Shown: one piece after another, positions 57,359 through 60,300 of the stretch
Layout: every line of letters starts with the position of its first letter
How positions within the stretch are numbered: position 1 is the first letter of the stretch
Source of the DNA: a virus
DNA length: 64,000 nucleotides
IMG/VR virus record: IMGVR_UViG_3300047160_007939
Coordinates: 1 to 64,000 of that record
Reading direction: 5' to 3' (one strand)
Position numbers and translations under genes: made by a program
Notes under the pieces: generated by a model
The model's database searches: none
The model's input: the letters and a program-made list of their open reading frames with translations, nothing else
What the model was told of the DNA's origin: nothing

Positions 57359-60300
57359 GGATGACACCCCCACGGCCACGGAGCTTGCCGATCTTACCGA
57401 GTGTATCACCCACTACACTATACTCCGGTCGCGGGTCGTTCTCGTGATCCTTCCCCGTCATCTCCCTGCCGGCGAGGAACATCTGGTGATCGGCACGGTC
57501 GGTCCCCAGGTAGCTGATGTCCCCCACGTTGGCGTAGTAGGTCGCCGAGAGCTGCCACGCGATCATCTCGGCATCGCAGAGGTCTTTGGCTCCCTTTCCC
57601 CCATAGGCTGATGTAGCAGGGTGGTCGATCTTCCGGTTGTTGATGAGCTGCACCTCGCGGAGCTGGTTCCTGGCCCGCTCGTGCTGGGGGTAGCCCGGCT
57701 TTGCGGGGAGCAGCCAGAGCAGGTTGTTGTTCAGCAGCGTCTTACCGTTCCGGTACATCCCGAGCTGCTCCGGATTGGACATGTCTTTGGCATCGCAGGG
57801 GATGCCCCACGATCGTACTTCCTGGATGATGCTCTCCGCCTGCCAGCGGTCGAACTTCATACCACCGACACTGGCCCCGCCTGCTTGAACGACATCCACG
57901 AGCTGGCGGAGCACATCTCGCACGTTGCCGAAGTCCACGGCCAACCGGTTCCGTTTGTCGGGCTTCCACTCCAGGAGTAGATCCTCAACAACGACCGCAC
58001 GTCGCTGCTCTTCAATGATGTCGTTGCCGAGGAGGTCTTTCGCGTAGACGGGCGTTCCGTCGTCTTCGAGGCGTAGAACCTTCGGGGCGGCGATCTTCTG
58101 GCCCGTCTCTTCAGCCAGCCCCCAGAACTGGTCCTCATTCGCATTCGGAACTCTCCCGCAGTGGTCACAGCGCCACATCGACGGCTCCCACGGCTTCTTC
58201 CTGAAGAGCGGCTGCTTCTTCGGGTCACTGCTTCGCGGGATCTTCCTGGGCCGGTAATGCTTCGCGTAGCGGCGCTGCCGGATCAGCCAGCACGCCGGGC
58301 AGCACTTCCCACCCTCTTCGCTGGGGACGATGTGCGAGATACAAAGGGCGAAGCTGTCCTGCTCCAGCCCCGCGTCCCCACCCACGAAGTAGATGATGCC
58401 CGGCCTGATACGCCAGTCCGAGAGAAGGAGCGCCACGTAGCGGTGCGTCTGCTGGTCCGAGGTGAGGTGCTCGGTAACCGTGTTCTCCACCTGCGCCATC
58501 GGCTCGATCATCGCCCGCCTGCCGGCTGTCGCCGCTTCCTCGATCTTCTCCGGCTGGGAGATGAACGCGCCCTCGGCTGCCGGCGGGTTCGTCTCGTAGA
58601 CTGCTTCGTAGAGGTCCGGGTCGTCGCGCTTCACCTGCGCCATCACCGGATCGGCTGCGTGCCACTCGCCGAGATAGTAGACCTTCTGCCAGTCGCGCCA
58701 GGGAATGACGATGCGCGTCGGAGCACGGTCGCCCCACCACTCGGGCGTGGCCCCGCCGAGGTTCTCACACTGCCGCAAGCCTCCCAGGATGAAGCCGTTC
58801 AGGGCGCGCGGCCAGGAAATGACGAAGCCCCACTGGAACGCGCCGAAGCGGTTACTGGTACGGAGCGTGTTGAAGCACGCCGTTGCCGCATCGTGGCCTT
58901 CGGCATCGCGGAGCGCATCCGCTTCATCCAGCACCCAGCCGAGGGTGTTCTTGCCTTCCGCGCTCTCGTTCTTCGAGTTCAGCGAGTGGACGCGCACGCA
59001 GGGAACCCGGTAGTCGTAGCCGGGCATCAGCTTCCAGAACTGCGTGACGTTGGCCTGGATGTCGCCTCGCGGCCCACGGTCGATCAAACCATCGAAGCAG
59101 GGCTTGCCGATGTGCCGAACGAAGCGGTCGTAGAAGTTGGACTTCGCGGCCCGAGCGTCCTGGGCCATGTTGATGAAGTCGAAGTAGTCGCCGTTGGCGT
59201 GCCGGAAGTGGACCCACGGATTGACCATCTGCTGGATCACCCACGCCGCATAAGCGTAGATCCAGGATACGAGGGTGTCTTTGCCCGAGTTGGCGTGTAA
59301 CGTGCCCCCGGCATCGAAGTAACAGTGTGTCCCACCCACGGTGAGGCTGTAGAAGTCCGCTACCCTGGTTGGCTCGATGGCGGTTATCTTGCTATACTTG
59401 GTGTATGCCAGTCCCACTAGACCACGAACTTCGCGCCCGTATCGTCGCCCTCTATGCCGAGGGGAAAAGCTCCCCCGAGATAGGCCGCATCGTAGGCAAG
59501 CACGCAGAGACGGTGCGCTATCACCTCCGAGGAGCCGGCGTGCGCGTCCGCACGAAGTCGGAAGCGAAGCTTCTGCTCGGACCCCGCCCACTGCCAACCC
59601 CCGTTGAAGTGATCGTCCAGGCTTACGAAGAGGGCTGGCCGCTAACCGCGCTATCCGCCGCGTTCGGCATCGCCGAAGAGACACTACGCCGACATCTCCA
59701 TCGAGCCGAACTAAAGATGCGAGCGCGGGGCCATGTTCCGGGCCGCTACGCGCCGCAGATCGAAGAGGCAGGCGACTACGTGTCTGTGACGCGCCGCGAT
59801 CACCCTCTTGCGGACGCAAATGGACAGGTGATGGCACATCGGCTGGTAATGGAAGCGCACCTGGGGCGCTTCCTGACGGCTGAAGAGGTCGTCCACCACG
59901 AGAACGGCATCCGAGACGACAACCGGATCGAGAACTTACGCCTCTTCCCCAGCGACCGAGAACACGCTCTTCATCACTGGCAAGAGTGGAAGACGCGACA
60001 ACTATCTCGTCCCCCACTTCCAGATCCACCAGCTTCTGCCAGCCAGCCGGCGAAAGAAAGCGATGCTCTCCCGTCACCTCGCTCTCCCGGCCATCCGCCA
60101 GCGTAACGCGATAGAGCTGGGCCGTGCCCTTCCGATAAACGGGTGACGCCTGCCGGTAAACGACGCGCTCCCCATCCCACGACCGCACCAGAAGCGGCGT
60201 GCCCAACTGCGCCCACTCCCCCATCGTGCGCGTAATTCCCGTGACCGCCGTGCTATAATCAGTCAGAAGACTTGTCTTTGATGTGCAACCTTTGCCCCAG

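Follow-up and report, generated by a model that had tools for sequence, protein, structure and literature searches.

The window, that is, the whole 64,000-nucleotide stretch of soil-phage DNA that was analysed, contains on its minus strand a gene for a large-terminase-like precursor with an intein, and on its plus strand, antisense within that intein, a gene resembling those of HNH homing endonucleases. The host gene and the intein form one open frame of 1087 codons and not two ORFs. All features are collected in Table 1; an earlier note on this DNA had placed the intein and the HNH gene at the same coordinates and on the same strands.

Table 1. Features of the terL-like gene, its predicted intein and the nested HNH gene (positions in the window)
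Feature	Position	Strand	Description
TerL-like (large terminase) precursor	57354..60617	-	1087 aa including the intein; frame open end to end
N-extein	60288..60617	-	110 aa, from the translation and the intein boundary; last residues ...WGKG, first half of Walker A
Class-1 intein (predicted)	59289..60287	-	333 aa; Cys1, T72-x-x-H75, Asp314, terminal Asn333, followed by Ser+1
Intein, N-terminal splicing lobe	59973..60287	-	Residues 1-105; beta-rich, pLDDT block means 83-98; intein frame constrained
Intein, loop	59409..59972	-	Residues 106-293; antisense read-through of the HNH gene; pLDDT mostly <50
Intein, C-terminal splicing lobe	59289..59408	-	Residues 294-333, blocks F/G; from pLDDT and alignment
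C-extein	57357..59288	-	644 aa; N-terminal SGKD, second half of Walker A
HNH homing-endonuclease-like gene	59405..60106	+	233 aa plus stop; lies antisense within the intein
Two three-helix HTH DNA-binding modules	59423..59704	+	Residues 7-43 and 67-100; from AF2 helices and Pfam
HNH nuclease domain	59774..60007	+	Residues 124-201; invariant H145, H165, N173, N177
HNH C-terminal tail	60008..60103	+	Residues 202-233; Pro/Ser/Ala-rich, antisense to intein block B
Promoter-like site	59369..59398	+	TTGGCT-18 nt-TATACT; TG at 59390-59391; ATG 6 nt past the end of the site

The host product matched the PHROG family phrog_17415, terminase large subunit, with an E value of 5.4e-6, and the nearest clusters of the C-extein in an Atlas feature search were terminase (0.94); no terminase match was obtained in Pfam or NCBIfam. 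From the PHROG match and the Atlas neighbours we describe the protein as a TerL-like packaging ATPase. The intein is inserted inside its Walker A loop, between GKG and SGKD.

The intein corresponds to residues 111-443 of the precursor, with Cys as its first residue, HAN as its last three and Ser following, and its block B motif is T72-G-E-H75. The Pfam model Intein_splicing matched it with an E value of 1e-6 and 29 bits, under the gathering score of 35.8 bits. When 17 inteins were aligned, C1, H75 and N333 were invariant. The penultimate residue is Ala, compared with the HHN ending in 13 of the 17; this residue and the low Pfam score count against the explanation that we favour. Penultimate Ala is tolerated in some inteins. 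In the AF2 model both lobes were confident, with ten-residue block means of pLDDT of 83-98 over residues 1-100 and of 94-98 from residue 301. A Foldseek comparison with the PDB gave 34 chains at E ≤ 1e-3, which among the matches listed were inteins or Hint domains throughout; the model resembles mini-inteins (Mtu RecA intein 3ifj, target TM 0.90). A two-lobed Hint fold is thus predicted for the insert. The loop between the lobes has almost no secondary structure in the model, with pLDDT below 50 for most of its residues, and R, S, G, P, A and L make up 77% of it. The low-information character of this stretch, previously described as about 220 aa of Arg/Ser/Gly-rich nonsense, was confirmed, but its length is 188 aa.

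The 233-aa product of the antisense ORF matched Pfam HNH_3 (PF13392) with 48.1 bits at a cut-off of 24.8, as well as HTH_23 and Sigma70_r4_2, both above their Pfam cut-offs, and HNH families in PHROG (best E 1e-21), in agreement with the HTH-HTH-HNH endonuclease first read from this strand. The mean pLDDT of its AF2 model was 86.8, with values of 63-65 and no secondary structure in the tail (residues 202-233). Comparison of the whole model with the PDB by Foldseek gave no match at E ≤ 1e-3 and weak matches to bipartite HTH proteins at E ~0.08; the tandem-HTH proteins 8vd6 and 2lvs were profile matches of the HTH modules. The four residues H145, H165, N173 and N177 were invariant in 30 HNH sequences. 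On the profile match and these conserved catalytic residues, the ORF is predicted to be an intact gene of the HNH_3 endonuclease type. We found 961 relatives at E ≤ 1e-3, the closest being 99% (P0001) and 60% (P0002) identical. Codon position 1 of the HNH gene pairs with codon position 1 of the intein, and the last helix of the HNH domain (residues 184-201) shares its DNA with intein residues 94-111; residues 94-105 among these belong to the structured N-terminal lobe.

It had been suggested that selection be compared in both frames among homologues, and this comparison separated the two frames clearly. In the overlap loop the amino acid identity was 0.442 in the HNH frame and 0.205 in the intein frame, and the intein-frame translation of the loop was the least conserved of all six frames. 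Nucleotide differences per HNH codon position in the loop were 0.44/0.39/0.66 over 153 pairs and 0.06/0.06/0.36 in the closest pair. The reverse was seen in the N-lobe region (intein frame 0.34, HNH frame 0.17), and in the stretch of the HNH C-terminal tail the intein frame was the conserved one. On these alignments selection is spatially divided, acting on the HNH frame in the overlap and on the intein frame in the splicing lobes, and the intein loop is constrained solely to stay stop-free, with no further information in it.

The nuclease gene of the window could still be a recently dead passenger, in which case the element would be a mini-intein with a long inert loop whose ORF has not yet decayed; decay after fixation is what the homing-cycle model predicts, as presented in bioRxiv 10.1101/2025.01.02.630785. 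It would fit this reading that a C-extein scan of viral contigs for intein-less or related terL alleles found none, and that there was no RNA run among the 24 runs with this stretch. The contigs of four soil DNA runs bridged both intein-extein junctions and contained no joint across the intein, the latter being of little weight since contigs drop rare variants. Against it, the catalytic columns are all intact, the predicted fold is confident, the HNH frame of the family is under strong purifying selection down to about 30% identity, and the full architecture is kept in the 60%-identical relative. We therefore consider a dead gene unlikely.

The arrangement is not confined to the window. Among 86 loci fetched by HNH similarity, 20 had the same nesting, the same codon phase and no stop in the intein frame, and the remaining 66 contained 2-19 stops in that phase; on genome contigs, 17 of 80 loci were stop-free in the intein phase, 15 of them with intein ends. 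Both counts cover HNH-bearing loci, as the loci were fetched via the HNH gene. For 18 of the 20 nested loci from metagenomes and viruses the intein termini could be read, with a single terminus in two that are cut by a contig end; the two loci outside this count are near-identical. The host proteins belong to Terminase_3, Terminase_6, AAA_34, AAA_33, AAA and AAA_2, and in nearly all nested loci the insertion lies at or adjoining the Walker A loop of these unrelated P-loop NTPases. Intein and HNH distances co-vary (Mantel r 0.65, p 1e-4, 16 sequences). Comparison across the loci shows that the predicted intein and the nuclease gene evolve as one unit, which is found in several unrelated P-loop NTPase genes. 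In a quick HNH tree the HNH gene of the window fell outside the main nested clade, with weak support, and this counts against our best explanation.

Two candidates were rejected during this survey. The relative P0005 (42% identical) has a tail resembling that of the window's protein, but it falls into one group with L011 and L019. These two are free-standing, also have its extra C-terminal domain and contain stops in the intein phase, so the reading of P0005 as nested was withdrawn. A stop-free codon-aligned antisense frame, with HNH position 3 opposite position 1, was seen in 13 free-standing loci; it is no nesting signal, since in all but L069 it closes, on at least one side, no more than a few codons from the gene. 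As for annotated phages, no terminase or intein annotation occurred with the HNH relatives among the matches listed (40 of 73 records), and one such relative (H1) stands as a gene of its own with structural genes on either side.

The spread of hosts bears on another interpretation, in which the HNH gene would be a terminase-associated packaging factor, as found beside terS/terL in cos phages, lodged in terL by chance. Phages commonly have HNH genes adjoining their terminase genes (PMC3592412), and the host gene here is indeed TerL-like. We regard this as quite improbable, since the gene is nested in the same phase in inteins of AAA_34 giant proteins, an AAA_33 kinase-like protein, and AAA and AAA_2 proteins, none of them terminases, and intein termini could be read at most nested loci. 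In addition, its tandem HTH modules are as in site-specific homing enzymes, and its close free-standing relatives lie in unrelated contexts.

It appears very improbable that a group I or group II intron removes the insert from the RNA. Introns with HNH genes are known from phage genes (PMC3428280), but an Rfam search of both strands of 58800-60800 gave no intron match at E ≤ 1, and the insert is in frame, with Cys1, TxxH, the terminal Asn, the +1 Ser and a predicted Hint fold.

When the codons of the HNH gene were shuffled synonymously, the intein frame contained 4.92 stops on average and none in only 0.12% of 5000 shuffles; the open intein frame therefore exceeds chance, and both frames are open as had been claimed. 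The idea that high G+C explains the two open frames and that one of the genes is not real can be rejected. The region does have 59-65% G+C, which lowers the frequency of stop codons, but this test (p ~0.001) speaks against the idea, as do the 3-9 stops that free-standing relatives with comparable G+C contain in the intein phase; moreover, each product has a match to a family or a fold.

Stops in the intein frame are created by NTT-A, NCT-A and NTC-A in the HNH frame; the last of these contexts had been correctly recognized earlier, while the other two had been omitted. The rare codons pointed out at such positions are present (CTA-ACC at 59642, CTA-AAG at 59711, GTA-ATG at 59846), but CTA also occurs four times before codons not starting with A, so the argument that they serve to avoid stops is weak for this window alone and holds only with the family pooled. 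In nested HNH genes Phe preceded an A-starting codon in 0 of 49 cases and Ile in 3 of 138, compared with 15 of 70 and 41 of 159, respectively, in the free-standing relatives, so that the overlap has left its mark on the protein as well.

Upstream of the HNH gene we found a -35-like TTGGCT at 59369 and, as the earlier note had reported, TG-c-TATACT at 59390-59398, with the ATG at 59405. This was the sole promoter-like site found in 59000-60700, and by itself it is weak evidence because shuffles yield on average 0.4 sites per 1.7 kb. Of 16 nested loci, 11 had a -10-like box (at least 5/6) preceding the HNH start (combined p 2.6e-8). If the putative promoter is used, its spacing from the ATG fits a leaderless HNH mRNA. 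The site is borne by the antisense strand of the DNA that encodes the C-terminal lobe of the intein.

The explanation that we consider probable is that a homing gene of the free-standing HNH_3 type lies antisense within a Walker A class-1 intein of a TerL-like ATPase; from the sequence features we infer its expression, the splicing and the cleavage. The terL frame passes straight through the endonuclease gene, and the roughly 188 aa that result form the disordered loop linking the Hint lobes. Protein splicing would excise the whole 333-aa insert and rebuild GKG-SGKD, and with this predicted restoration the phage would therefore keep a working terminase. The promoter-like site opposite intein blocks F/G would drive separate expression of the endonuclease, probably on a leaderless mRNA, and the enzyme could cut the P-loop coding DNA of intein-less alleles, after which repair would copy the intein together with the nuclease gene into the cut allele. 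The shared phase, the open frames, the frame-specific selection, the co-variation and the enrichment of -10-like boxes support the composite selfish element that the earlier note had proposed.

We also put forward, tentatively, a broader reading, in which an HNH_3 gene and an intein that targets P-loops became partners long ago, possibly once only, and have kept one phase across unrelated P-loop NTPases (Terminase_3, Terminase_6, AAA_34 giant proteins, AAA_33 and AAA+). Walker A coding DNA would then be a near-universal landing site. The overlap may have shaped both partners, with the nuclease avoiding Phe and Ile before A-starting codons and its promoter lying within the DNA that encodes intein blocks F/G. 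On this reading, DNA methylase genes lacking any intein also have related HNH genes nested antisense in them.

The results show that the intein with an antisense endonuclease is more than an oddity known from a handful of LAGLIDADG or Vsr examples and that it includes a widespread HNH lineage, with members in phages from the environment as well as in contigs assigned to bacterial and archaeal genome bins. With several hundred bases read from both strands and measurably divided selection, it offers a clean natural system for the study of overlapping genes. The data support the acquisition of nucleases by inteins through invasion of free-standing genes, as well as nucleotide-binding loops as a means for such units to switch host genes. 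Gene callers will mis-annotate these loci, either as a long terminase with a low-complexity insert or as an HNH gene splitting a terminase, and the mini-intein lobes, split off, may serve as parts in protein engineering.

With its HNH gene, the element adds to a rare layout that was known from other nucleases. Intein endonucleases in antisense or out of frame are in print for LAGLIDADG, Vsr-like and EndoVII-like types (bioRxiv 10.1101/2025.01.02.630785; bioRxiv 10.64898/2026.09.14.751524), and the layout thus has precedents, contrary to what had been supposed. For the overlapping-frame or antisense LAGLIDADG inteins these preprints cite Gorbalenya 1998 and Gogarten 2002. The literature searches turned up no antisense HNH gene in an intein; the supplementary tables of the preprints could list cases.

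The overlapping-frame or antisense LAGLIDADG inteins of cyanobacterial DnaX and of a Chloroflexus SpoVR-like protein, as described in these two preprints, share with the present element a contiguous intein, a disordered in-frame loop, an endonuclease ORF in another frame and frame-dependent selection; they differ in having LAGLIDADG nucleases in cellular genes, whereas here HNH_3 is combined with HTH modules in a phage terminase-like gene. The non-canonical inteins of actinobacteriophages (bioRxiv 10.1101/2025.01.02.630785), with antisense LAGLIDADG, antisense Vsr-like and out-of-frame EndoVII-like nucleases, are also from phages, several of them in the terminase large subunit, and have splicing blocks on both sides of a nuclease ORF that uses a different frame or the opposite strand. 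Their authors propose that a free-standing endonuclease gene invades the intein and that nucleotide-binding sites are a route for switching exteins. In what that survey sets out, however, HNH is listed only as an in-frame domain and not in antisense, and it reports no shared codon phase, promoter analysis or spread across metagenomes and MAGs.

In fractured genes, a free-standing GIY-YIG or Vsr-like gene lies between the halves of a split intein (Dassa et al. 2009, PMC2677866). As here, an endonuclease gene of the free-standing type is flanked by the N and C parts of an intein, and the host genes are DNA-metabolism genes on environmental phage-like contigs. In fractured genes, however, the host frame is interrupted and the intein splices in trans, whereas our host frame continues through the nuclease gene. 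The ShiLan domain is a hidden out-of-frame HNH endonuclease within a phage DNA methylase (PMC11855218). In both cases a stop-free insertion that keeps the frame of a phage gene conceals an HNH gene in a different frame; the HNH frame of ShiLan is on the same strand and, as described there, no intein or intron is detectable, whereas here a canonical intein is predicted to remove the read-through. Finally, inteins with in-frame endonucleases likewise combine splicing and homing, both predicted for the present element, and have the nuclease between the Hint lobes, but in them one polypeptide carries both activities, while here they would be divided between two genes on two strands with separate putative expression signals.

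The intein that the earlier note had placed in terL, with an endonuclease gene on its opposite strand, is confirmed on statistically solid grounds and belongs to a large family. It lies in a virus record that is 119.5 kb long and has direct terminal repeats; the window covers the first 64 kb of this record. There is modest evidence that the interrupted minus-strand ORF encodes a TerL-like protein: a single PHROG terminase match was obtained (E 5.4e-6) and the Atlas neighbours carry terminase names (at 0.94); Pfam and NCBIfam searches of the product gave no match. The intein splits a Walker A-like loop (…WGKG / SGKD…) and, as claimed from the sequence, carries the splicing features of class 1, namely Cys1, T72-x-x-H75, Asp314 in block F, the terminal Asn333 and Ser at +1, although its penultimate residue is Ala and not the usual His. 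Tandem repeats (18 and 36 bp) flank terL at 57020-57103 and 61206-61341, one just 3' of the terL stop and the other within the upstream triple HTH_3 gene; they could be binding sites or code for a repeated linker.

Features of the terL region and of the modelled HNH protein
Feature	Position	Strand	Remarks
TerL-like ORF	60617 to 57354	minus	1087 codons
Intein	59289-60287	minus	residues 111-443 of the TerL-like ORF; class-1 marks
HNH gene	59405-60106	plus	233 aa; HNH_3 and HTH families
Triple HTH_3 (Cro/C1-type) protein gene	60775-62214	minus	upstream of terL
HNH protein, three-helix modules	residues 7-43 and 67-100		followed by a floppy linker
HNH protein, nuclease domain	residues ~124-201

The HTH-HTH-HNH reading of the gene opposite the intein was borne out by an HNH_3 match of 48.1 bits (cut-off 24.8), by two HTH families above their cut-offs and by PHROG HNH families, the best at E 1e-21. 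The two proteins were also modelled. An AlphaFold2 model of the intein, built on an alignment of 17 inteins, has two confident lobes (mean pLDDT in blocks of ten residues: 83-98 for residues 1-100, 94-98 from residue 301 onwards), which resemble solved mini-inteins such as the Mtu RecA intein 3ifj (target TM-score 0.90); 34 chains match the model at E of 1e-3 or lower. Residues 106-293, the loop read antisense to the HNH gene, have pLDDT mostly below 50 and almost no secondary structure, and R/S/G/P/A/L make up 77% of the loop versus 44% of the lobes. The HNH model, built from 30 sequences, has a mean pLDDT of 86.8, and the catalytic H/N columns are invariant; its tail (residues 202-233) has a pLDDT of about 64 and no secondary structure. 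On the opposite strand, this tail faces intein block B and the promoter-like site faces blocks F/G; only about 35 nt (59973-60007) code for structured parts of both proteins.

The double open frame is not due to chance. First codon positions of the two frames pair with each other, and second positions of the HNH frame pair with third positions of the intein frame and vice versa, so that any HNH codon ending in TT, CT or TC creates an intein-frame stop when the next codon starts with A. In 5000 synonymous-codon shuffles of the window's HNH gene, the mean was 4.92 such stops and only 0.12% had none; for all 19 distinct nested genes (those within an intein frame on the opposite strand; the window and 18 others), at most 1% of shuffles were free of stops. 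The rare-codon argument of the earlier note is weak for the window alone, where two of the six CTA codons stand before an A-starting codon and four do not, but the forbidden contexts are empty when the 19 genes are pooled: CTT, CTC, GTT, GTC, ATT, ATC and NCT are all absent before A-starting codons. Of 49 Phe residues none, and of 138 Ile residues 3, come before an A-starting codon, versus 15 of 70 and 41 of 159 in free-standing relatives with a G+C of at least 0.5. The overlap has left its imprint on the nuclease protein sequence itself.

Selection on each of the two frames was found among homologues. In a codon alignment of 18 nested genes (L004 left out; 153 pairs), the HNH frame had an amino-acid identity of 0.442 over the part antisense to the loop and the intein frame one of 0.205, the lowest of the six frames. 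Nucleotide differences at HNH codon positions 1/2/3 were 0.44/0.39/0.66, and 0.06/0.06/0.36 in the closest pair (L051 and L034). Across the N-lobe, the stretch opposite the HNH tail included, constraint rests on the intein frame (0.34 versus 0.14-0.17), with the most variation at intein codon position 3. With opposite frames constrained in loop and N-lobe, each gene is junk where its partner is functional.

Searches with the HNH protein yielded 86 loci (6 viral, 80 metagenomic). By tblastn, the window's intein N-lobe had an opposite-strand match adjoining the HNH gene in 16 of them, all 16 with the intein frame open across that gene. Twenty of the 86 had zero stops in the window's antisense phase (three antisense phases counted), and intein ends were present in the additional four too; the remaining 66, loci of similar G+C included, had 2-19 stops. 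Contigs of representative bacterial and archaeal genomes gave 80 loci, of which 17 were stop-free in this phase: 15 with intein ends, judged by eye, and two in intein-less DNA methylase genes. In these two, HNH_3 genes (L096:2809-3264 and L102:2791-3213, both plus strand) with an N-terminal Cys-rich segment lie in the window's codon phase, antisense inside stop-free N6_N4_Mtase genes (L096:1316-4282 and L102:1886-3610, both minus strand); neither intein ends nor a Pfam intein match was seen. They are the antisense equivalent of ShiLan, the hidden HNH insertion described in PMC11855218. Four AT-rich HNH genes (L017, L018, L032 and L033; 30-34% G+C) have a codon-aligned antisense frame free of stops for 154-188 codons and hence no TTA, CTA or TCA codons; they were rejected as nested, since the open frame stops at the gene's downstream end.

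Nearly all nested inteins are inserted in a Walker A loop (…G/[ST]GK[ST]); insertion is just 3' of the Walker A Lys in L083 and L165 and at a Walker B-like site in L004/L005. Hosts include Terminase_3, Terminase_6, AAA_33, AAA, AAA_2 and AAA_34 giant proteins (>3000 aa). Two giant frames, L012:1-10554 (at least 3518 codons) and L014:1429-10440 (at least 3004 codons), both minus strand, have their AAA_34 P-loop domain split at Walker A by this same intein type with an antisense HNH gene. In L146:2009-5500 (minus strand), whose contig was binned with a Mycobacterium MAG, an intein ends in HHN followed by Gly (GGKS), not Ser/Thr/Cys; either the boundary is shifted or the copy would be incapable of usual splicing.

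Pairwise distances of intein lobes and HNH core were correlated (r 0.65, Mantel p 1e-4, 16 sequences), and nearest neighbours were mostly the same. A quick maximum-likelihood tree was built from 87 HNH rows, 21 of them nested; in it, one clade (SH-aLRT 92) takes in 17 nested rows and four free-standing genes; the window, L026 and L004/L005 fall outside it on weakly supported branches, a topology that neither shows nor excludes a single origin of nesting.

A single sigma-70-like site lies within 59000-60700: TTGGCT-18-TATACT, with a TG upstream, which ends 6 nt 5' of the HNH ATG. The earlier note had described its TGcTATACT part and the distance to the ATG. A -10-like box (at least 5/6) lies within 45 nt upstream of the start in 11 of the 16 nested loci whose start is clear, a count that leaves out L004, L041 and L070, with unclear starts, as well as L005 and L025, which are duplicates. 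The combined p of 2.6e-8 against windows of the same locus is optimistic, some loci being close relatives. The box is at -12, the leaderless geometry, in the window and four other loci, and other nested loci have a Shine-Dalgarno-like word, all of which is consistent with an HNH gene having its own transcription signals. The box (59393-59398 in the window; corresponding positions in L010, L014 and L023) is antisense to a Tyr-x-Ser-like spot just before block F, and the promoter on the opposite strand may account for the Tyr codon that recurs there. The stretch is contained in 24 soil DNA runs (22 studies; eight possibly the source of the window's DNA), with no RNA run among the 24. Contigs of four soil runs bridge both intein junctions, and no intein-less joint was seen in them; one run has two nucleotide changes matching two residues that separate the window from P0001, a 99% identical HNH relative.

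Anatomy, shuffles and recurrence together confirm the proposed arrangement, and comparison lends good support to its mechanism, in which splicing would remove the antisense stretch and the nuclease would be expressed independently of late terL transcription. The kind itself is known; its HNH version, as far as searched, has not been published before, since a search of full texts turned up no intein with an HNH gene on its antisense strand. In actinophage inteins, Gosselin, Arsenault and Gogarten (bioRxiv 10.1101/2025.01.02.630785) found LAGLIDADG and Vsr-like nucleases in antisense and EndoVII-like ones out of frame, and HNH appears in the text of their survey in frame only. A split version of the layout was reported by Dassa et al. 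2009 (PMC2677866) and a same-strand hidden HNH without intein by Arsenault et al. 2025 (PMC11855218). The Ssp DnaX intein, with its antisense LAGLIDADG (Gorbalenya 1998 and Gogarten 2002, as cited in bioRxiv 10.1101/2025.01.02.630785), was analysed by Phillips et al. (bioRxiv 10.64898/2026.09.14.751524), and the disordered loop and frame-specific selection described there are shared by the window's intein.
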